Shown: one piece after another, positions 4,000-55,889 of the stretch
How the letters are laid out: each line of letters starts with the position of its first letter
How positions within the stretch are numbered: position 1 is the first letter of the stretch
Source: a virus
Lineage: Duplodnaviria > Caudoviricetes
Virus record (IMG/VR): IMGVR_UViG_2645727545_000002
Span: 1-64,000 of that record
DNA length: 64,000 nt
Direction: 5' to 3' (one strand)
Translations under genes and position numbers: made by a program
Notes under the pieces: generated by a model
What the model saw: the letters and a program-made list of their open reading frames with translations, nothing else
Database searches by the model: none
What the model was told of the DNA's origin: nothing

Positions 4000-6437
4000 T
4001 TACATACTCTTTCTGTCTGCAATTTCAGCCATCTTTGCATCATTCAATCTTGTATCTCCATGAACTCTTGAATACGACAGATATCCATTCATTCTTTCAA
4101 TCTTTGTTAAATCGCTACTTCCACAATTCGGACAAATATCCATATTTAATTCTTCATGACCACAATTATTACAGTATGCGAGCGAAAGATTTACTCCTTC
4201 ATAAAATCCCATTGACATTGCACGTCTTACAAGTGTTTTAATTGCATCGTGATTATATCCAATCGGATATTTACAATATTGAATGCGTCCACCCTCAATA
4301 TAATTCCAAAATCTATGTTCTAAATCCTGTTTTTGAATCGGAGTAATATCTTCCCAAACACCACAATGAAAACTGTTGCTTACATATTCTCTATCTGATA
4401 CTCCTGGAATAATTCCATATTTCTTACGGAACTGTTTTACCTGAAGCCCGCAGAGATTTTCTGCCGGTGTACCATAAATTGCATACAACCAACCATCTTC
4501 TTTTTTGAATTCCTTAACCTTTGCATCGATATATTTTAGTGTTTCTAATGCGAATTCACCATCTTCTACAAGTGATTTTCCATTGTATAACTGCTGCAGT
4601 TCATTTAGTGCTGTAATTCCAAAGGATGCTGTCATAGGTTTTAAAAGTGGTTTGATCTTGTCTGATGGATTTAAATGTCCTCCTAGAAAACCTCCTTCGC
4701 AATACCCAAGCGGATTTGTGGATGCTTTCATCTCTCCCAAATAATCATAGGTTCTCTGATGCAACTTACGGATCATTTCCAAATAGTAATCAAGAACTTC
4801 ATAAAAATCTTTATTTTCTTGTCTTGCTTTTGCAAGAATCATAGGAAGATGCAATGATACTGCGCCAATATTGAATCTTGATACAAAGATTGGCTCATCA
4901 TTTTCATCTTTTGGCTCCATTCCTCCTCGTTCATACCAAGGAGAAAGAAATGCTCTACACGTATTAATCGATTGTCACCAATCGTACTGACTAACTTTTC
5001 CCTCTGAAGCGTCCTAATCTTCATCAACAGGCGGTATCTTTGGAAACAGTGCTTATCTCTGTTTCTACGACGTTACACTCATCACGTCTAGTCGATTGAC
5101 CTTATATATAAGGCACAGCTTCATCTATAGTGCAAACGATCTCTCTCCTATAGACCTATCTGTTAGCAATTCAAATGAATCACACCCACCAAGCAAGTGG
5201 TTTAATACCGTTTTACATGGGCTGATTTGCACTTACCCATAGGACTAATAACTTTTCCATATTTATGGTACATTTTAGACACTGTTGTATCTCCATCTAA
5301 ACTTAACCAATCAGGATACATTGTTTTCGCGGAAGTTTTAATACCTTCTTCGAATAAATCTTCGTTTACTTTTCCTTTTCCGTGTAATTCTTCTGTATAA
5401 AGGAATACAAGTTTTGGAAACAACACAGGCTTTTTATTGCCATCCTTTCCTTGTCCTTCTCTATGAACTCTGAGAAAAGTTTTTGAAGCCATTTTAGCGA
5501 ATGGATCTGTTCCCAACCCAAATGTAATGGTGATAAATGGATAATCTCCTCGGCTGGAAGAGACAGTATTAAACTTGTATTCAAGTCCCTGATAACCTTG
5601 TTCCATATCACGTTCTACTTTTTTCATAGCGTAGTCATTAGATTTCTGTTCAAAATCTGAATGTCTATAATCCAGTAAGTTATCTGCAATATCATAAAAT
5701 TCATGTTTATATTTTTCATAACTTTTTTTAGCATATGGTACTAATACTTCATCAATCTGAGGAAGTGTAAATCCACCATACTCTTGACTCGCAGCACTTA
5801 ATGTAATATCTCCGATTACATCAAATGCTGTATCTAGTGTTTTAGGCTCGTTATACCATACATTTCCCATTTCAAATCCACCACGCATTACTTCTGCGAC
5901 ATCAAAAAGGCAGCAGTTCATCGTATCTCTTCTTGCAGACATATCATGAATATAGATATACCCATCATTAACAGCTTGTCTTTCTTCTACTGTTAAGAAG
6001 AATTTCTTATATAGCTGTTTATTCAATTCATTTAATACAAGACTTCGCTTTGTAGATACGAGAGCACTATCAGTGTTACTGTTTTCCTTATCCCCGATGT
6101 ACATAATTTTCTGACTCTCTTCGTATACCGTATCCATCATATGTACAAAATCAAGTTTATAATTACGATATTGCTGATACTGATACCCTATTTTGGGAAA
6201 CAAATCACGAAGTGTTTTCTCTACAATATTATGAATAAAGCCTACAGGAACTTCATCATTTTCAAAATCTTCTTCATCAATCTCATTAATGACTCTGTTA
6301 CAAATCATTCCGTACTCATCTTGTGAAAATGTAAAATTTTCTCTCTGAGCAGATTTATTGATGGCATTAATAATCTTCTGCTCGTTATACTTTTCCAATG
6401 TTCCGTCCTTCTTAATTACTTTCATCAAATACATCAT
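4000..6437 (-). CDS. nrdD: Class III ribonucleotide reductase, two exons (6437-5235 and 4959-4000)
   Basis: N-terminal ATP cone, YIHD, NCC; spliced junction ISPMG|CRAFLSPW; C-terminal CxxC..CxxC and glycyl-radical loop RMNGYL. Confidence 0.95.
4960..5234 (-). ncRNA. Group I intron (275 nt, no homing endonuclease ORF)
   Basis: 5' exon ends in U (ATGGGT) pairing with IGS GCCCAT; R-like GGTCAATCGACTAG and S-like AAAAGTTAGTC form P7; terminal G; removal restores in-frame MGCR. Confidence 0.9.
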
Positions 6438-6443
6438 CCTTTC

Positions 6444-6761
6444 TTACTTCTGAGAACTATCTTTTGTTGTCTTCGTTGTAGGTCTGGTTCTTTTTGTTTT
6501 CTGCTCTATTGCATTATTCTCTTCTTTTGGTTCGTTTTCTTCATAATCTTCATCATCAGAATCAGACCATTCATGACTTTTATTGCTTCTAAACTCTTCC
6601 ATAGTCACATCTGTACCTTTGAATGCACGAATACATTTTGCAACACCTTCAAACAGTGACCAGATTGGAATCCACATTGTTGTCCCAATTGCAAAAATCA
6701 CTGTTCCAAGTTGATTAAAATCCATACTTACTTTACCTCCTAATAAATCCACTTCCTCCAT
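6444..6761 (-). CDS. Hypothetical membrane-anchored protein (likely start MDFNQ)
   Basis: One TM helix and an acidic tail. Confidence 0.55.
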   Translation of the reverse strand: MEEVDLLGGKVSMDFNQLGTVIFAIGTTMWIPIWSLFEGVAKCIRAFKGTDVTMEEFRSNKSHEWSDSDDEDYEENEPKEENNAIEQKTKRTRPTTKTTKDSSQK

Positions 6762-6924
6762 CTCTCACGTTTAAACATAAGTGAGAGATGTCATCGATGT
6801 TTCCATGTGTTTTCGTGTGTCCAATACTATCAATTACATATTCTTCTTCTCCTAATCTAACTGTGATGAAATCGTCAGGATACATTCCCAACTCTCTCAT
6901 CAACATGCCACTCGTTCTGATCAA
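6733..6924 (-). CDS. Hypothetical phage protein
   Basis: 63-aa ORF between gmk and the next gene. Confidence 0.55.
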   Translation of the reverse strand: MIRTSGMLMRELGMYPDDFITVRLGEEEYVIDSIGHTKTHGNIDDISHLCLNVRDGGSGFIRR

Positions 6925-6929
6925 TTTAT

Positions 6930-7484
6930 TTATTCTTCCTCTCTCGTTTTTAAGTATTTACAAATTTCATCTACTAGATCGCCAATATCCTTGTCTTTAT
7001 TATTGTAAAAAATTCTATCCGCTAGAAATTCAGCATCTTTAAAATCTTTGTTGTCTTGTTTAATTCTGCGATCAGCCTCTTCTTTCTTGTCTCCACGATT
7101 AGATAGTCTGCTTCTAATTGTTTTATTGTTTGCATATATATAAATAGCAACATGATCATCCAACTCATCTTTAATGTCTCTATATCCATCTGGAGTCAGA
7201 ATTACAATTGACTTATTGTCCACTCTTGATATTTCATCTAAAGGAGAACCATAATACCAAACACCTTCTACGGTGTCGTATTTCTTCCATTCCGCAAAAT
7301 ATCGTGTATTAATAAGTTGTTCAAACTCCTCTTCGGAAATAAAATTGTAATCAACTCCATCAATTTCACCTTTTCTTGCCGGTCTTGTTGTTGTCGTTAC
7401 AATTTTCTTGTATCCTTGCTTTGCAAGTTCATCAACAATCCTACTCTTTCCACTTGCTGTTTTACCGAAAATTATAATTGCCAT
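6930..7484 (-). CDS. gmk: Guanylate kinase-like NMP kinase
   Basis: GKTASGKS P-loop; TTRPARKGEIDGVDYNF signature. Confidence 0.9.
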   Translation of the reverse strand: MAIIIFGKTASGKSRIVDELAKQGYKKIVTTTTRPARKGEIDGVDYNFISEEEFEQLINTRYFAEWKKYDTVEGVWYYGSPLDEISRVDNKSIVILTPDGYRDIKDELDDHVAIYIYANNKTIRSRLSNRGDKKEEADRRIKQDNKDFKDAEFLADRIFYNNKDKDIGDLVDEICKYLKTREEE

Positions 7485-7486
7485 TA

Positions 7487-7684
7487 TTATGATTTCACCT
7501 CTGTATCTTCTATATTTAATGGTGTTTTATTAATAAACAATACTCGTCCATTATCATCAACACACATCGCTTTATATAAGGTAACTTTACACTCATGCTG
7601 TTCCGCGTCTACATATCTTTCACATGTATCTTTTACAGGACAATCATTTTCTTCATGTTTGCAATAATAAATAGTATCTGACAT
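7487..7684 (-). CDS. Small Cys-rich protein
   Basis: 65 aa with five Cys. Confidence 0.5.
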   Translation of the reverse strand: MSDTIYYCKHEENDCPVKDTCERYVDAEQHECKVTLYKAMCVDDNGRVLFINKTPLNIEDTEVKS

Positions 7685-7751
7685 TATTTGTTTCCTTTTC
7701 TGATATTCGTTTTGTCGCAGATTTGATTTTCAAATCCTTTAATGTATTCTT

Positions 7752-8303
7752 TTAATTCATCTTCAAAAGCAGCTTTTTGTTATACCCACATGAGAACATC
7801 TCTGGACACAGACCATTTCTATACACGCATTCTCTTACCATTCTGCTTGCTGCTTCCGGCTCAAACTTAACAATTTCATCTTTAATCATCTTAAATGCTT
7901 TCTGTGTTTCGTAACTAGCACAATTACATAGTCTTTTTCTCGCAACATTGATTAAAGCTTGAAAATTAAAGTAATATGTAGCACTCTGTAATGTATTTCT
8001 ATCAGGAACTTCATTATAGTTATTCCTGTCACTTCTGAGTGATGATACAAACGGAACAACCCCATTTGAATGACGCACTAAATGTCCATGTACAAATTGC
8101 GGCGCATCATAGATTTTTAAAATTACAAATCCAAGCCTGATTGGGGAATGTTCAGCCATAAGCAGTTTCAATTTCCAGTCGTGGTTTGGATAACCACCTT
8201 TATCCTTTCCAATAGTTGTCATTGTTGCATCCTTTATCTGCTGCCACATATCTTCAGCCCATTTGATTTCTACGCGCATTTTTGATAAATCGGGTTTATT
8301 CAT
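7752..8303 (-). CDS. thyX: ThyX-like flavin-dependent thymidylate synthase
   Basis: EHSP, HLVRH...S.R, NFQALI..RLC pattern; nucleotide-metabolism context; 3' end likely frameshifted. Confidence 0.7.
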   Translation of the reverse strand: MNKPDLSKMRVEIKWAEDMWQQIKDATMTTIGKDKGGYPNHDWKLKLLMAEHSPIRLGFVILKIYDAPQFVHGHLVRHSNGVVPFVSSLRSDRNNYNEVPDRNTLQSATYYFNFQALINVARKRLCNCASYETQKAFKMIKDEIVKFEPEAASRMVRECVYRNGLCPEMFSCGYNKKLLLKMN

Positions 8304-8306
8304 AAA

Positions 8307-8546
8307 TTATTCCTCCACAATCCATAGTTTCATATCTTCTTTGAATTTATTTTTTACATACTCGTCATCCGAATGAAGCACGACGACACATTCCTTTTCA
8401 AGACCAATACCCATAAGTCCAAGAATTGACTTAGCATCAATCTGGTATCTTCCACAAAGATAATCAATATCTTCCTCATATCCGTCACATACTGTTGCGA
8501 ATAGCATTGCATTTTTAACTGTATTTAATTTGATTTTAATTTCCAT
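8307..8546 (-). CDS. HPr-family protein lacking the His15 motif
   Basis: IDAKSILGLMGIG (Ser46 region) present; no GLHARP motif. Confidence 0.8.
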   Translation of the reverse strand: MEIKIKLNTVKNAMLFATVCDGYEEDIDYLCGRYQIDAKSILGLMGIGLEKECVVVLHSDDEYVKNKFKEDMKLWIVEE

Positions 8547-44687: not shown

Positions 44688-45510
44688 ATTCTGTTTCTTC
44701 AGTCACTGTCGAATTATCACAAATTGTTACTACTGTATTTTCATTTGGGATGATGAATACTTCTTCATCACCTAGTTTCCAAAATGAAATTTGTTTACCT
44801 TTTCCGTGTAATAATTCACCATCCCATTCAAGAACATCTGTCGATAATTTAACTTCTCCAGGAAGAAGTGTAATCAATTTTGCTCTCTTTCCTATATAAT
44901 CAATATTCTCCACTATCTGTTCAATTTCCGGATAGATTTCACATACTTTTCTATATATGTCAGGCATAAGTCTTTTTAGTTGATCACAAAACTTTGGAAC
45001 ATATTCTTTCTGATAAGAAGAAATTACTCCACCCATGAGCGCATATGGTTTATATTTAATAAGCTCTACAATGAAGTCAGGTGTAAAATCATCTTTTTTA
45101 ATCATGTCATCATCTACAAAGAAATCACTATTTCGAATTGGATTATTATATCCATTAAGATGCGGTAATCCAAGAAAAACATAATCTCCAATTTCACATA
45201 CAAAATTTAATGATTTTAACGCATATTCAACATCTCCGTATTTTTCCTTATATTCACTTACTAAATATCCGCATTTACGTGCTGCTTTTGTAAAACCTTC
45301 TTTCTTTTCAATTGTGCCGTAAGGACAACTATGTCTCCAAATCCCATTCAGCATCACGCATTTCTTTTTCTTATATGCATTACAATTTTCGCAATTGCTA
45401 CACTTATAAACTGAAACACGTTCTCTGTCACTTTTCCCAGATTTAAAAATGCTGGTTCTCGGATCATAATATGCAAAGTTAATTGGCTTGTACTCTCCTA
45501 TAATAATCAC
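44677..45510 (-). CDS. Hypothetical phage protein with Cys cluster
   Basis: 277-aa ORF. Confidence 0.7.
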   Translation of the reverse strand: MIIIGEYKPINFAYYDPRTSIFKSGKSDRERVSVYKCSNCENCNAYKKKKCVMLNGIWRHSCPYGTIEKKEGFTKAARKCGYLVSEYKEKYGDVEYALKSLNFVCEIGDYVFLGLPHLNGYNNPIRNSDFFVDDDMIKKDDFTPDFIVELIKYKPYALMGGVISSYQKEYVPKFCDQLKRLMPDIYRKVCEIYPEIEQIVENIDYIGKRAKLITLLPGEVKLSTDVLEWDGELLHGKGKQISFWKLGDEEVFIIPNENTVVTICDNSTVTEETEFEE

Positions 45511-45674
45511 TCCCTATCTATATTTAATTTTCTCAATTTGGAAATCAATGCTTGACTAAACATGTAAAGATATGTAATATAATAAATGCATTGGATTCCA
45601 AATTATTCAATGTATTTGTGTTTATAGACACACATCGAAGTTTGGTCGCGGAGATGTGTGTCTTTTTTATTCAT

Positions 45675-46001
45675 TCATTTTTTATGTTTCATTATGTATC
45701 TTCTTCTGGTTGTTTCTCTCAATGCATGTCCACCATGTAATCTTCTGTAGTTATTTGTGATTCCATATAATGCCCAAAAGAGTTTCTTCCTATTTAAATA
45801 TGTAAGTTCACATGTAAAATGTGGTGTTTTAGAAATATCAAGCTTACCAGTAGGTTCCCGCTCATTAACATCCTTGCTTTCGCCCAATGTCGATACTTCT
45901 GCATTTTCTATATTTATCTTCTTTCCAGTTTTAAGATCTACAAAGCTTGCATTTTGAATTCCACGTATTTCAAAACCACTCATAAATTTATTCTCTTTCA
46001 T
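45675..46001 (-). CDS. Hypothetical phage protein
   Basis: 108-aa ORF. Confidence 0.55.
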   Translation of the reverse strand: MKENKFMSGFEIRGIQNASFVDLKTGKKINIENAEVSTLGESKDVNEREPTGKLDISKTPHFTCELTYLNRKKLFWALYGITNNYRRLHGGHALRETTRRRYIMKHKK

Positions 46002-46587
46002 TATTTAAAATTTCTTTCAATGTTACTGGTGTATAATTCCACAACATACACCCTACATTTTTTGCTACGCACTTAATTTCATATTCACTGTTTAGTTTTT
46101 TGATATACTCTTGATAATAATCTTCTTCTATAGAATTATGTACATGTCCATATAAGTGAACAGACCACACTTTATGCTCTTTTCCATTTCTTCTGTAATG
46201 ATGCTGATGATTCCAAAAAGCCAATGGAAAGTGAGACATTACGACATGATGCTCTTTTCCGTCAATCATATCTTTCGCTTCTTTATAATTTGCTATTTCT
46301 ACAAATAACTGTTTATATCTTTGATCTGTTGCTTTATCGTGATTGCCAAGAATTAGATGTTTATTACCACGCAATGTACTAACAAGTTTAATCGCATCTT
46401 CGTTTTCCTTCCATGCCAAATCTCCTAAAATATACACATGATCCGCATTTGTAACTTTTGAATTCCAATTTTCCTTAATCACTTTATGCATTTCTTCCAA
46501 TGTATCAAATGGTCTATTGTCAAAATTAGAACCTTCATTCGTCACATTCTTATGGAATAAATGTAAATCACTAATATAATAATTCAC
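45988..46587 (-). CDS. Calcineurin-like metallophosphoesterase
   Basis: SDLH, LGD, GNHD, HFP, GHVH. Confidence 0.92.
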   Translation of the reverse strand: MNYYISDLHLFHKNVTNEGSNFDNRPFDTLEEMHKVIKENWNSKVTNADHVYILGDLAWKENEDAIKLVSTLRGNKHLILGNHDKATDQRYKQLFVEIANYKEAKDMIDGKEHHVVMSHFPLAFWNHQHHYRRNGKEHKVWSVHLYGHVHNSIEEDYYQEYIKKLNSEYEIKCVAKNVGCMLWNYTPVTLKEILNNERE

Positions 46588-47365: not shown

Positions 47366-47848
47366 TTAAAAATATAATTTTGGAATATGTTTATATTCTT
47401 TAACAACATCTGCATATCCTAAATCAGATAACAATTTTAATAGTGTATTATCCGCATATTCATGATAATTTATTGATCTACATTCTTTTAATATCTCCAC
47501 ATATTTATCAGATAACCCCTGTACAAAAGTAGACTTTTTATTTTTACTAAAATGCTCTGTTTCATAATCAAAAATCCATTCCCCAATTTCGGTAATGTCA
47601 TTGTATGAATAAAATCCTAAATAGTCTGCGGCATATTGTAAATCAGACAACTCTTCTTCTGAATGAAGAATAATTTTTTCACAATTATTATATGTATCTT
47701 CATCCATTAGATCTGTCATTTTTTCTCCGTCTTTATTGTACGCTTCAATTGTTTGAAGATGTGGATGTTTCAACTCAAATTCATGATGTTCGCATTCATA
47801 CTCATCTTCAAACTGTTTTCCATCGTCTGCAATATATACTGTTCTCAT
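47366..47848 (-). CDS. Hypothetical phage protein
   Basis: YIADDGKQFEDEYEC N-terminal motif. Confidence 0.65.
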   Translation of the reverse strand: MRTVYIADDGKQFEDEYECEHHEFELKHPHLQTIEAYNKDGEKMTDLMDEDTYNNCEKIILHSEEELSDLQYAADYLGFYSYNDITEIGEWIFDYETEHFSKNKKSTFVQGLSDKYVEILKECRSINYHEYADNTLLKLLSDLGYADVVKEYKHIPKLYF

Positions 47849-47880: not shown

Positions 47881-48636
47881 TCAACTTTTATCACTCTCGT
47901 GTTTAAAACTAAACGACGGCATCATTTGCAATTTAAACAAATTCTTTTCGTGCATCTGGTCAATTTTCTTCTTTAATTGTTTATCATCAATTAGACCTGT
48001 TCTGATATATTTATCGAGAACTTCATATGTAAATCCTAAATTATCTTCATCTGTTTTATCGCAAAGACCGTCTGATGGAATTTTCTCAATGAACTCTTTC
48101 GGAAGTCCAAGTGCATATCCGACTTCTTTAACTTCTGTAACAGTCAGATTAGACAATGGGCTGAAATCACCAACACTATCTCCCCATCTCGTACTATATC
48201 CAATCCAATCTTCAGATAAATTACATGTATTTGCAACTCTTCCATTTACAGTCTGAGACACGGCATACAATGTAGCCATTCTAACTCGCGCTGGTAGATT
48301 GATAGAAGACTGTTTGCTCCAGTGATCATTTAATTCGGGCTTCACTTCATGCTTAATATCACGCACTGCATTAAAAATATTTACTTCAATACTTTCAATT
48401 CCGAGATGACTAACAACTTTCTTCGCGACGTCAATATCCTTTTGTTCCCCGTTTGGCATAAGAACACCCAATACTCTTTCTTTTCCTAGAGCTTCAACGC
48501 AGAGTGCAGCAACAATCGTCGAATCCTTCCCTCCTGAAATACCAACAACTGCTTTACATCCACGACCATTCTCTTTAAAGAATTTTTGAATCCATTCAAT
48601 AATTGCAGTTTTAACTTCATTTGCATTAAAATTCAT
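47881..48636 (-). CDS. nadE: NH3-dependent NAD+ synthetase
   Basis: GISGGKDS, N..AR.RM, TCNLSE..GYST.WGD, PSDGL, DE; no glutaminase domain. Confidence 0.95.
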   Translation of the reverse strand: MNFNANEVKTAIIEWIQKFFKENGRGCKAVVGISGGKDSTIVAALCVEALGKERVLGVLMPNGEQKDIDVAKKVVSHLGIESIEVNIFNAVRDIKHEVKPELNDHWSKQSSINLPARVRMATLYAVSQTVNGRVANTCNLSEDWIGYSTRWGDSVGDFSPLSNLTVTEVKEVGYALGLPKEFIEKIPSDGLCDKTDEDNLGFTYEVLDKYIRTGLIDDKQLKKKIDQMHEKNLFKLQMMPSFSFKHESDKS

Positions 48637-48637
48637 T

Positions 48638-49155
48638 TCAATCTCGCCTCTCTTTCCCTAATCTCCATAATTCCACATCACAGTTTGAAAAAATTTCTTC
48701 AATCATTTTATAAACATCATCCCCAATTTGCGCCACCACGACAGCATCCAATTTTATATGGCATTGCAATTTTATTTCCATAATGACCATTCTTTAGGAA
48801 TGTCAAAATCTTCAATGATTGCATGCATTTCCTTAATGCATTAATATTTGTGTACTGTTTACCATCATATCCATAATTGTTTTGGGCGAACATGTTACAT
48901 ATAAATTGTTCGCTCTGAGGAATTATAATGCTACCAGTGTCATAACCATTCCATCTGCTATTAATAGGAACAACTTGAATTTTTCCAATCATTTCTTCTG
49001 AACATACTTTTATGTACTCATTATATACATTTGGATATTTCTTCTTAATCTGAAGTGCAACTCCTGATCCCATTTTTCTTTTGACAGTTTACCTGGTGCG
49101 CGATGATTCGAGCATCTGATTGGAACAAATCTCCATTGATAATTTTTATAGGCAT
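48638..49155 (-). CDS. Macrodomain protein (Poa1/DarG-like; frameshifted ends)
   Basis: GDLF..IAHQVNC..MGSGVA; AMPYKIGCCRGGANW. Confidence 0.88.
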
Positions 49156-50644
49156 TAAAATTCACCTCCATGTAGTCTGTCTCTGATTTCTTTTAACGAT
49201 TGTTCTTTTAATAACTCTCCGTCTTTAAATACCGGAATTAACATATTCACGCGTTTTTCATAATCAGCAGCCTGTTCCCATGTAAGCTCGTCCTCATAAT
49301 AAATGCTTCCATCGCATCGGTATATACTCTACAACATCCTTTCTGGGATTTCTTAAATCCTCCATCTTTTGGATTTTTAAAAATTGGGAATGGCTTGCCG
49401 TCAATTTCACAATATGTTGCTTTAATACATGAACTGAAAGTATCTCTTGTAAATGGTTTTAAAAATCCATCTTCTTCGATGCACTGAAATGAAAACGATC
49501 CAACGCCTAACGCCACATTTGAACATGCAAATCCGTTTTCCATGAGAATTTTGTAAATTTCTTCACATCTTTGTACTGTAATTGAATCACCATAAATTGC
49601 TTTTACATGTGGATCAAGCACTTTATACCCCTTGCTATTAACTGTTCCGCCGAATTCTTCCCATAATTTAAATACAGTTTTTGTTACAACTTCTACACAA
49701 TCTCCAGAATCTCCGCGCATTAACATGCATCCGTTATGATTCATAATTTCTGTTTTTAACTGAGGAAGAATATTATCGATGATATTCCAATAATCATAAG
49801 AGTCAAGAACTGCTGAAAAACTTGTGTTTGGATAGATTTCGGTAAGTAATCTTCTTAATAATGTAATCTCATCTCCATCGACTGCATAATTACTACACAT
49901 TACGGAATGCTCTGTACTAGGACTCCCATATGCAACAGATTCTTTTGTACAATCACAAAAATAATTCTTCTCAAGATAAGGAATAGTTGGAACGGTTGCC
50001 GTATTTAAAAATGATAAGCACCACCCAGCTCCTGCTTTTACCGCTGATTCTAAACACTCTTCTCCCCGGAAGTCAAATGCACCAAGGGCTTTTGATCTTG
50101 GAATATTATCTTCACAAGTTAAATCATAATAGTGATTAACAATTCCACGGTATGTCATTCCTACTGTTGCTGCCAACATTGGATGCCACATTTCTGCTGA
50201 GATAAGACTTTCTAAACTCTGAGGCAACCATGCAAAATCTTTATGTGTATTTGTAATACCAAACATAGGCACATGCATTGGAACAATTGTACCTTCTGGC
50301 AATGCAACAATCTCAATTGGCAAATATCCCAATTTATGTAGACTCTCAATCTTGTCAATTTTATACGCATCTTTCCCAAGTGATGCATCCATAATTCTTT
50401 TATATTCATAAATAATTTCTTCAAAAGGCTTATCAAAGAACTCTTCATTGAAATAATCAATCAGATACGTTTTAATAAACCCCTGTAATCCAAACATTAC
50501 TACTTTATCCCATCGTTTTACACGACTCATTCTAGGAGTAAAATAGGAAACTGATTTTGTAATATTTTTAGGCAGCATTTCTGCATGAACCGCTTTATAA
50601 AAGTCAATTAATAACATTGGACTTGTCTTATTCGTCATATTCAA
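49155..50644 (-). CDS. NAMPT/NadV-fold phosphoribosyltransferase (possibly Namat-like and nicotinate-preferring)
   Basis: DFYK, F..RG, EHS, DSYD, RGDSG, GD, RDT, FKNP, KKSQKG; FLNTATV in place of FKGTDTV; 3' frameshift. Confidence 0.9.
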
Positions 50645-51443
50645 ATACCTCTACTTTCTCATGTTCTTTTGTAAAAATACTATTTGTCGTGAACACTCTG
50701 TCTATCAATCCACTACTCAATACTTCTCCTTCGAGAATTGTATTTTCACAATGAGATACATATAGATAAATTTCTTTTGCACCAAGTTCTTTTAGCTTCT
50801 TTGAACTATGATAGAATGTACCACCACGACTTGAAATATCGTCTACAATTAAAATCTTTCTGTCTTTTATTAATTCTGTCATACCTGAAACATCTAACCC
50901 TTTAATTTCTCCTGTTTCCCAGTCACGCTTTTTAATGCCAAAAACATATGGAAGATCAAACATTGTAGAATAACGTTTCATAGCTCCTTCATCCGGAAAG
51001 AACATTGTAAGATTATTTGTGCCACCGATGTATTTGCTTTCGATTGCTTCCCACACATACTTGTCCGGATGCTTAATTACGATTTTATCAATAAGAGCTT
51101 CGCTTACAGATGAATGTGGATCTAATACTGTTACAGAATCAAAATTCAGCCAATTAATAACTTCTGCAAAATACTTTAATGTAAATACATCTTCTGTTGT
51201 TTTAACACGATCTTGACGACTGTTTGGAATATATGGCATATTCAAGTACAAATTTGTAATACCGTGAGAATTAAGATGTTTGACAATATAAATCAATGTC
51301 ACCAATTCTTCATTATCCTCAAACAACCAGGTAATAGTTGCTTCTCTGTAATTTTTAAAATCATAAGGAACATCCTCTTTGAGCAAGAGAGTTCCATCTG
51401 GAAACTTCTTTACATTTAATACCTCTCCATTAATTTTTATCAT
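50628..51443 (-). CDS. PRPP synthetase-like protein (Prs/Adps)
   Basis: FPDG, PYIPNSRQDR, DPHS, PDEGA, KKR, VDDISSRGGTF, SH. Confidence 0.9.
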   Translation of the reverse strand: MIKINGEVLNVKKFPDGTLLLKEDVPYDFKNYREATITWLFEDNEELVTLIYIVKHLNSHGITNLYLNMPYIPNSRQDRVKTTEDVFTLKYFAEVINWLNFDSVTVLDPHSSVSEALIDKIVIKHPDKYVWEAIESKYIGGTNNLTMFFPDEGAMKRYSTMFDLPYVFGIKKRDWETGEIKGLDVSGMTELIKDRKILIVDDISSRGGTFYHSSKKLKELGAKEIYLYVSHCENTILEGEVLSSGLIDRVFTTNSIFTKEHEKVEVFEYDE

Positions 51444-51974
51444 AAGAATTTTCTCCAATCACATTAATCTGGCAAGATTTCATTACTTCTAATGCAGCTC
51501 TATGCTTTTCAGGAGCGACACCAGCACAGCACGACGCATCAACTGTAATTTCCATTTCTGGCACCCATGCTTTAATTAACAGAGCATTCGACACTACACA
51601 AATATCAGTACATACACCAACAAGTTCAACGCTATCATAATCATTACTAGAAAAACCACCCTGGATACATTCTGCAAGGTAATTACTTCCAAATCTATCT
51701 TTATTAATTACGTGTTTTGCGTAAGATTTTAATTCATCTACAATTTCCCATCCATTTGTTCCAATAATACAATGCTCTACAGGCAATTTTTTACCTTCCT
51801 GTGTATCTAAATAATCGTCCCAATGTGTATCTTTTGTAAAGAAAACTGCGTCCCCATTTTTTAAATATTCCTCAACTTTACATTTCACATTCGGAACAAT
51901 CTCCAGGGCTTCTTTTGTTCCGAGACTTCCTGTAACAAAATCATTTTGCATATCTACTACAACTAAAACTTCAT
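51430..51974 (-). CDS. pncA: Nicotinamidase (isochorismatase family)
   Basis: VVDMQNDF, DTH, HC..GT.G, K, GVCTDICV; NAD-cluster context; 5' frameshift. Confidence 0.85.
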
Positions 51975-51979
51975 ATACA

Positions 51980-52261
51980 CTATTCTCCTTCTATTAATTC
52001 TAAACACTCTTTCAGAAAATTTCTCACTCTATCATGTCCATTTTCGCAATATATACCTGTATAACATACCGGCTTATTCCAGAACGCCATCCATGCTCTT
52101 TTAAATCTTCCAATAACTCCTTTAAAATCTCCACCACAATATGAATCCTCAAAAGAGATTTCAAAATCAGTTGAATTTTTCATTGTATACTTAGAAAATA
52201 CAACTGATTCTGCATTATCGTCACATCTAATTGTGACTGTTTTTACATTGTCTTTCTTCAT
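51980..52261 (-). CDS. Hypothetical phage protein
   Basis: 93-aa ORF at the head of the NAD operon. Confidence 0.6.
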   Translation of the reverse strand: MKKDNVKTVTIRCDDNAESVVFSKYTMKNSTDFEISFEDSYCGGDFKGVIGRFKRAWMAFWNKPVCYTGIYCENGHDRVRNFLKECLELIEGE

Positions 52262-52484
52262 ATATTAGTTCTCTCTTTCTACGTTTGAAATTCTGCTTTC
52301 ATTATTTAACTAAGTTATCAATATTTACAGAAAATCCATCAAACTTTCCTGTTAATAAATATTTCTTTGTATCAAAAACATTATTTTCTTTTCTGATAGC
52401 CCCATAGAAACACCATTATCTATCAATGATTTTCTCAATAAATCCAGAACAATTTGCAACTGCTCTTTTGTATCTTCTGACATG

Positions 52485-52940
52485 TTATTCCTTTCTCATA
52501 GGTTCTGGTAGTGGCTGCCATGCTACAACCTTTTCATACCCCAATTCATCATTTGTTTTAAACACCGTATCAACGAATCCTAAACTTGTCGAATCGTAAA
52601 TATCATGCCAAAATCCAAATCCATATTCACTATCATACTGGCAGAACATCGGCAAATCCTCTTCGTGATTTTCGACAATACACATATAGAATCTCATATC
52701 ATCATCTTCCGGCAATTTCTCGCTTACCGGAATCCAACCGTCATTTTTCTTCCCATCTTCATATCCTTGCATATAAAATTTTCTTCGGCTGCATTCTCTG
52801 CACTTCGGAACATCGCCCATATGAGAACGGATAATGTCTTTTGCCCAACCAACACTTACATAATCATCACACATTCCGAATGATTTAAACTCTATCGCAT
52901 GATCTTCAATCTCTTCCAAGATCTTCTCTAGTACGTTCAT
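52485..52940 (-). CDS. DUF551-like phage protein
   Basis: WIPVSEKLPE...VVAWQPLPEP. Confidence 0.8.
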   Translation of the reverse strand: MNVLEKILEEIEDHAIEFKSFGMCDDYVSVGWAKDIIRSHMGDVPKCRECSRRKFYMQGYEDGKKNDGWIPVSEKLPEDDDMRFYMCIVENHEEDLPMFCQYDSEYGFGFWHDIYDSTSLGFVDTVFKTNDELGYEKVVAWQPLPEPMRKE

Positions 52941-55817: not shown

Positions 55818-55889
55818 TGGATCATTCGGGACTTGAACCCGAACCGATCGGTTATGAGCCGATTGCGCTCACCATTGCGCCAATGATCC
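55818..55889 (-). tRNA. tRNA with CAT anticodon, most likely tRNA-Ile2; no encoded CCA
   Basis: GGATCAT/ATGATCC acceptor, GCGC D stem, ATCGG-CTCATAA-CCGAT, TCGGG-TTCAAGT-CCCGA; lacks the initiator GGG/CCC stem. Confidence 0.9.

Follow-up and report, generated by a model that had tools for sequence, protein, structure and literature searches.

The window analyzed here, the first 64 kb of the 136,328-bp IMG/VR virus contig IMGVR_UViG_2645727545_000002 (CheckV 81% complete, ends classed as linear), carries a five-gene operon on its minus strand at 47881-51974, encoding a PncA-like nicotinamidase, an Adps-like enzyme of the Prs family, a Namat-like transferase, a macrodomain protein, and an NH3-type NadE. 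All five of the coupled NAD genes named in the original prediction, an earlier note made from the window's letters, are found at these coordinates. Judged from sequence, the operon is read here, with a probability of roughly 0.67, as a deamidated, nicotinate-type form of NAD+ (nicotinamide adenine dinucleotide) reconstitution pathway 1 (NARP1). Nicotinamide would be converted to nicotinate, ADP-ribose (ADPR) to ADPR pyrophosphate (ADPR-PP), ADPR-PP and nicotinate to nicotinate adenine dinucleotide (NaAD), and NaAD to NAD+. Intact protein sequences were taken from L002, a locus on another IMG/VR contig that is nearly identical to the window in this region.

Depletion of NAD+ is among the commonest antiphage strategies of bacteria. 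In the setting envisaged for the operon, a host defense NADase splits NAD+ into ADPR and nicotinamide, and the phage genes would serve in counter-defense. PncA would first hydrolyze nicotinamide to nicotinate and NH3, and the macrodomain, as an optional accessory, would return ADPR-1''-phosphate to ADPR. The Adps orthologue would pyrophosphorylate ADPR to ADPR-PP, from which the Namat-like enzyme would make NaAD directly with nicotinate, so that, as in NARP1, no adenylyltransferase (here one acting on nicotinate mononucleotide, NaMN) would be needed. NadE would then amidate NaAD to NAD+. One argument for a nicotinate-type reading is that NadE would be idle without a deamidated nucleotide to act on. 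What the sequences show directly is which genes are present, which residues have changed and how these changes covary with gene content, and that no adenylyltransferase was found; at every sequence-testable step these results agree with the route first proposed, from PncA through Adps and a nicotinate-using transferase to NadE.

NARP1, known from phages SPbetaL1 and Bas63, consists of Adps and Namat (bioRxiv 10.1101/2024.02.11.579819), for which structures are available (Namat, PMC12774641; Adps, PMC13586617). The corresponding transferase of the operon (49155..50644, minus strand; about 494 aa when intact) has the NAMPT fold, with Pfam domains PF18127 and PF04095 and a match to phrog_448 (E 8e-147). 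The original prediction called it NAMPT-fold and gave it a Namat-like role with nicotinate; likeness to Namat is borne out by a score of 384 bits against PDB 9W5W/9W5X, compared with about 145 bits against genuine NAMPTs; the two entries are SPbetaL1 Namat according to their depositors (PMC12774641). The protein is 45% identical to Namat and groups with Namat-type representatives in a tree that holds no true NAMPT outgroup. As in NARP1, it is encoded next to an Adps orthologue, and its catalytic core is kept (Asp13, Tyr15, Phe189, Arg192, His245, Arg306, Asp308, Gly360, Asp361, and the Thr-Arg-Asp motif, in SPbetaL1 numbering). Also kept are Arg40 and the aromatic residue at 392 of the adenine clamp (Arg41 and Phe384 in the window protein), both of which NAMPTs lack. 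It is the only phosphoribosyltransferase-type enzyme at the operon, and is of the NAMPT/Namat type rather than a PncB-type nicotinate phosphoribosyltransferase.

The transferase departs from Namat in its base-binding pocket. In SPbetaL1 Namat, nicotinamide is held by Phe189, Arg192, Asp215, Ala242, Arg306, Asp13′, and Tyr15′; Asp215 hydrogen-bonds the base, and the D215A change lowers NAD+ formation 8-fold (PMC12774641). The equivalent residue of human NAMPT, Asp219, sets substrate specificity, and D219S switches the substrate, according to accounts of Khan et al. (2006) in PMC7096376 and PMC4919578. In the window protein Asp215 is replaced by Ala (SFLNTATVP, compared with SFTGTDTIP in SPbetaL1 Namat) and Ala242 by Ser, with all other nicotinamide, ribose, and phosphate contacts unchanged. 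Ala or Ser occupies the Asp215 position in all 88 typed variant loci. In the window's own numbering the pocket includes Ala216, Ser243, Trp208, Gly188, and Asn214. The variant thus shares the Asp site with the human NAMPT mutants, but D219S is an engineered single change in a PRPP-using enzyme (PRPP, phosphoribosyl pyrophosphate), whereas in this natural clade the remodelling extends to the whole pocket: besides Asp215 to Ala or Ser and Ala242 to Ser, the NARP1 residues His187, Gly213, Ser239, and His207 are changed.

The same two positions divide the wider family. In a set of the 150 best cluster representatives (50% identity) from 1.8 billion proteins, position 215 is Ala, Ser, or Val in 51, all but one of which have Ser at 242; the other 99 have Asp or Glu at 215 and, with two exceptions, Ala at 242. 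The two types are told apart best by alignment columns 215, 187, 242, 213, 239, and 240. Positions 187 and 213 correspond to His191 and Gly217 of human NAMPT, which line the tunnel beside the nicotinamide site. Since 215 and 242 are pocket contacts and 187 and 213 tunnel residues, the divergence between the two types is concentrated on the base-binding site. The window transferase is accordingly annotated as a predicted nicotinate ADP-ribose transferase. For the clade as a whole, the odds somewhat favor the proposal that it converts ADPR-PP and nicotinate to NaAD and pyrophosphate, that with PncA, Adps, and NadE it makes up a 'deamidated NARP1', and that 215/242 form its amide/acid switch.

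Gene content follows this division. Loci were fetched with the window protein (76) and with SPbetaL1 Namat (52) and scanned with hidden Markov models built from the first set; the 129 typed phage loci comprise 90 variant ones (Ala/Ser at 215) and 39 canonical ones (Asp/Glu at 215). Both pncA and nadE are present in 82 of the 90 variant loci, and of the remaining eight, six run into a contig end and one encodes a truncated transferase. Neither gene lies within 6 kb in any of the 39 Asp/Glu-type loci. In this co-occurrence survey, which the original prediction had suggested, pncA and nadE therefore go with pocket type (82/90 variant vs 0/39 canonical), and a nicotinamidase and a NadE distinguish the variant module from NARP1.

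The variant clade is deep, and gene order within it varies. The commonest order is pncA-adps-transferase-nadE; one locus (L134) reads transferase-X-nadE-adps, and in another (L107) pncA lies downstream of nadE. Early-branching lineages that have the canonical clamp helix combine Ala/Ser215 with Ser242 and carry the full gene set where the contig is long enough; on one short contig (L132) only adps and the transferase are seen. Phage Phass-1 (L135; OQ749652.1; genetic code 15) has the same module, with His207, Ala215, Ser242, and the canonical clamp helix in its transferase. The Phass-1 genes are annotated as nicotinamidase, ribose-phosphate pyrophosphokinase, nicotinamide phosphoribosyltransferase, and two hypotheticals, one of which is NadE. 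A bacterial-looking contig (L131:128-4614) has the order adps-pncA-transferase-nadE, with a transferase of the variant type; an NrtR-type regulator (NrtR winged helix) precedes these genes, and a chemoreceptor gene lies alongside. This locus points to a chromosomal form of the module that ADPR possibly regulates.

On the donor side, the Prs-like gene (50628..51458, minus strand; listed open reading frame (ORF) 276 aa, with the likely true start at the ATG at 51443) matches phrog_619 (E 1e-69). Its product is 43% identical to SPbetaL1 Adps (E 1e-57) and conserves Lys162, which is essential in Adps. It falls below all NCBIfam cut-offs for PRPS (TIGR01251, 99 bits vs a cut-off of 113), and the best PRPS match in the PDB reaches only 59 bits. 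SPbetaL1 Adps pyrophosphorylates ADPR and gave no product in an assay for Prs activity. Residues specific to Adps, taken from the paper on the ICP1-type structure, were tried as a classifier and discarded, being mostly conserved in PRPS too; the assignment rests on orthology to SPbetaL1 Adps because these residues fail to discriminate. The ICP1-type structure itself did not match the Prs-like protein in the PDB copy searched. By these comparisons the gene is an Adps orthologue, predicted to convert ADPR and ATP to ADPR-PP, and the earlier view of it as Adps-like rather than a PRPP-making Prs holds up at this level.

The macrodomain protein (48638..49155, minus strand; 171 aa when intact) matches PF01661 (E 2e-6, intact copy in L002) and the 'phosphatase' family phrog_335 (E 4e-20). 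Its nearest PDB entries, the DarG macrodomain, TARG1, and Poa1p (6LFQ), place it in the Poa1p/TARG1/DarG clade, and a phage FADO protein with the annotation 'ADP-ribose 1''-phosphate phosphatase related' shares 42% identity with it. Macrodomains of the Adpp family, of which Vibrio phage Gary has a member, are ADPR-1''-phosphate phosphatases that yield ADPR and act as a NARP1 accessory, the combination being NARP1-AP (bioRxiv 10.64898/2026.01.28.702374). The window protein is likewise predicted to be an Adpp-like ADPR-1''-phosphate phosphatase, which fits the original suggestion that it may supply ADPR. Macrodomains of this type occur in 25 of the 90 variant loci, compared with 5 of the 39 canonical ones. 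The operon thus resembles NARP1-AP in enclosing such a macrodomain, but here it accompanies a nicotinate-type transferase, and some relatives have a 138-aa HAD-like protein in its place. ADPR-PP is favored as the donor because of the Adps orthology, the presence of an Adps-like gene in 89 of the 90 variant loci, the retained Arg40 and aromatic residue at 392, and the macrodomains.

The gene for the alternative protein (138-139 aa) separates the transferase gene from nadE in 14 relatives; phage Phass-1 and one distant lineage have it at the same site (for example L010:7482-7889, L135:5582-6001, and L134:2399-2818). The encoded proteins are 34-40% identical to one another and carry DFDDT, a motif resembling HAD motif I; their neighbours in the Atlas are viral 'HAD-like/hydrolase' clusters. 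Such a protein may take the place of the macrodomain phosphatase without being homologous to it. At one locus of the Ser215 sub-clade (L117:7439-8890), the same interval holds a HAD-like ORF with a DVDGV motif, a Tpt1/KptA RNA 2'-phosphotransferase (PF01885, E 3e-48), and a macrodomain.

The two flanking enzymes of the proposed route are a nicotinamidase and an NAD+ synthetase. The PncA-like protein (51430..51974, minus strand; 181 aa when intact) belongs to the isochorismatase family PF00857 (E 2e-23 for the window copy, 2e-27 for the intact one in L002). The intact protein conserves Asp10, Lys94, Cys133, Asp52, His54, and His71 of PncA from P. horikoshii (1ILW/1IM5), which we take to be the catalytic triad (the first three) and the metal ligands. 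It scores below the NCBIfam equivalog for PncA (25 bits vs a cut-off of 174). NadE (47881..48636, minus strand; 251 aa, intact; PF02540, E 4e-54) passes TIGR00552 with 180 bits against a cut-off of 63.65. Because it is a single domain of 251 aa without a glutaminase domain, it is assigned to the NH3-dependent type named in the original prediction. Its best PDB matches are NH3-dependent NAD+ synthetases, led by 2E18 from P. horikoshii (138 bits), and it is predicted to convert NaAD, NH3, and ATP to NAD+.

An adenylyltransferase had been reported missing from the window, and its absence extends further. A search of all 136,328 bp of the contig, rated 81% complete, turned up neither a PF01467 adenylyltransferase nor a Nudix domain. 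Nor was PF01467 found in four closest relatives (one of them 98% complete), in two further complete relatives, or in Phass-1.

Several points weigh against the nicotinate-type reading. We know of no enzyme that forms NaAD from ADPR-PP. SPbetaL1 Namat also uses PRPP in vitro, hence NaMN could be formed. In the transferase, clamp residue Tyr396 is replaced and followed by an insert of 9-30 residues, unlike in NARP1; because of this change (Cys388 and a 9-residue insert in the window protein), adenine recognition may differ from that of canonical Namat. Two full-length variant loci break the linkage, L050 lacking nadE and L121 lacking pncA. All variant transferases fall in one clade, so the linkage of pncA and nadE is a single origin that has been retained, not a set of repeated independent gains. 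The contig is only 81% complete. A sub-lineage represented by L009 and L012 has an ORF with weak resemblance to NMNAT about 75 kb away from its NAD genes. That ORF (197 aa; L136:1480-2073 and L137) stays below all family cut-offs, with 54 bits against a cut-off of 127 for archaeal nicotinamide mononucleotide (NMN) adenylyltransferase; in these two phages it adjoins a tyrosine recombinase, and the window's own lineage lacks it. Lastly, as sequenced, frameshifts interrupt three of the five genes.

The main rival, unlikely but to be taken seriously, is a PRPP-based booster of Preiss-Handler salvage, in which the Prs-like enzyme would make PRPP, the NAMPT-fold enzyme NaMN, and host NadD NaAD, with PncA and the phage NadE at the two ends. 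The base-pocket switch and the linkage to pncA and nadE fit nicotinate use with any donor. Use of PRPP by SPbetaL1 Namat and the loss of Tyr396 in the window's clade suit this rival, but Arg40 and the aromatic residue at 392, absent from NAMPTs, are retained. The NCBIfam family name, 'nicotinate phosphoribosyltransferase', also suits it. Against it, the Prs-like gene is an Adps orthologue that scores below the PRPS cut-offs, and its SPbetaL1 counterpart gave no product in the Prs-type assay. The ADPR-1''-phosphate phosphatase macrodomains of 25 modules would be purposeless in a PRPP route, which would moreover depend on host NadD. Like Preiss-Handler salvage (PncA, PncB, NadD, NadE), the deamidated NARP1 proposed here would begin with deamidation of nicotinamide and end with amidation of NaAD by NadE; unlike it, the operon has no PncB-family enzyme and no NadD, and Adps and a Namat-type transferase would carry out the middle steps.

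A second alternative takes the frameshifts as real and the module as a decaying remnant in this phage, with pncA, the transferase C-terminus, and the macrodomain as pseudogenes. The breaks are indeed present in the window as given, and consist of four single-base homopolymer indels relative to L002. An A-run at 51971 is one base short and shifts pncA at codon 2 (ATG AAG TTT TAG), so that the listed ORF begins only at an internal Met, without the catalytic Asp. A C-run at 49320 is one base short, which moves the last 50 or so residues of the transferase to another frame, and the macrodomain is split over three frames by an extra A in an A-run at 49077 and an extra G in a G-run at 48724. Yet every indel is homopolymeric, a pattern typical of read or assembly error, and across 44.2-52.7 kb (8.4 kb) the window and L002 differ by seven homopolymer indels, some of them outside the five genes, and two substitutions, being otherwise identical. 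L002 has the full set of five genes uninterrupted, as do 75 further IMG/VR loci and independent Logan and ENA assemblies, with lengths of 181 (pncA), 271-276 (adps), 494 (transferase), 171 (macrodomain), and 251 aa (nadE). Because the near-identical L002 and hundreds of other assemblies have intact genes, the frameshifts are most likely sequencing or assembly errors, and the real phage probably carries five intact genes; decay is improbable. Further single-base homopolymer indels relative to the L002 contig lie at window positions 52378, 47138, 46982, and 54515. Such errors probably occur throughout the window, and other short or split ORFs there may therefore be artefacts. About 1.2 kb of the window (roughly 44923-46119) is absent from L002.

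It is very doubtful that the operon is ordinary NARP1, making NAD+ from nicotinamide and ADPR-PP, with pncA and nadE as unrelated salvage genes that feed host pathways. The homology to Adps and Namat and the frequency of accessory genes in NARP1 operons would be expected, but the nicotinamide-binding Asp is missing from every transferase linked to pncA and nadE and present in every unlinked one, its replacement in D215A is costly to the canonical reaction, and a nicotinamidase would consume the substrate. Least credible of all is a Francisella-type route, in which nicotinate would give NaMN, NadE would act as an NMN synthetase, and a host adenylyltransferase would make NAD+: 3FIU, presumably the Francisella tularensis enzyme, is the second-best PDB match of NadE (98.6 bits), but the best is P. 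horikoshii NadE, no NMNAT was found in the phage, and the Adps and macrodomain arguments apply here as well.

Only three phage routes of NAD+ restoration, NARP1, 2, and 3, have to our knowledge been described, and a nicotinate-based route would, if true, work by a fourth logic and involve a new enzyme reaction. Like NARP2 (Nampt and Nmnat, vibriophage KVP40) and NARP3 (PnuC and NadR; PMC13464706), deamidated NARP1 would be a phage-encoded means of restoring NAD+. Those two pathways need an adenylyltransferase, which was not found in this phage, and use PRPP or nicotinamide riboside. Identity with NARP3 was considered and rejected, given its PnuC and NadR components. In the literature searched, no paper was found that describes the nicotinate-type pathway, module, or reaction: the Phass-1 genome paper lists the nicotinamidase and does not discuss the module, and the jumbo-phage NAD paper reports only conventional pncB-nadD-nadE clusters.

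If correct, the proposal would explain why some phages encode a nicotinamidase and NadE, both senseless beside a nicotinamide-using Namat. It would also provide a two-residue rule (Asp/Ala vs Ala-or-Ser/Ser at 215/242) for annotating proteins now labelled 'nicotinamide/nicotinate phosphoribosyltransferase'. Why a phage might route NAD+ through nicotinate is a matter for speculation: hosts with active PncA would leave nicotinate as the available base, charged nicotinate might be retained in the cell, and NaAD might be a poorer substrate for NADases. Reuse of NH3 by NadE and a role of NaAD as an NADase-resistant pool are equally speculative.

The window belongs to a large gut phage, and the module is widespread in gut phages. 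The variant type accounts for roughly one in three of the 150 nearest cluster representatives at 50% identity, and human-gut assemblies contain it in abundance. A homologue search returned near-identical proteins only, among them one 98%-identical protein named from [Ruminococcus] gnavus, which hints at the host. Of 50,697 cultured-phage records only 31 contain NadE, and megablast of the operon region against cultured phages gave no match; scarcity in cultured-phage databases may explain why earlier surveys did not describe the module.

Many Namat-type genes are 550-1100 aa long, owing to insertions, either N-terminal or close to residue 320, that contain LAGLIDADG or HNH endonuclease domains (for example L072 and L073, ORF 5884-8481, and P0122, P0138, P0160, and P0203). 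These insertions look like inteins or homing-endonuclease invasions. Long homologues (P0152, P0160, P0254, and others) were considered as Rosetta-stone fusions and rejected, since their extra length is HNH/LAGLIDADG or unannotated sequence and not PncA or Adps. In a close relative (L138:1280-2897), a reverse transcriptase (RVT_1) beside a faint bAvd-like gene lies about 6 kb upstream of the module, and the pair may be a diversity-generating retroelement.

The window has a GC content of about 32%, and every gene in it is on the minus strand. Within the operon, genes overlap or abut: pncA overlaps the Prs-like gene, which in turn overlaps the transferase gene, and a shared TAATG serves as transferase stop and macrodomain start. 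A scan for promoters and terminators gave counts at chance level and was uninformative on the operon boundaries. The ORFs flanking the operon, of 93 aa (51980-52261) and 160 aa (47366-47848), have no family match and are confined to the closest relatives. Farther upstream lie a gene for a DUF551 protein (52485-52940) and a tRNA-Met gene with a CAT anticodon (55818-55889).

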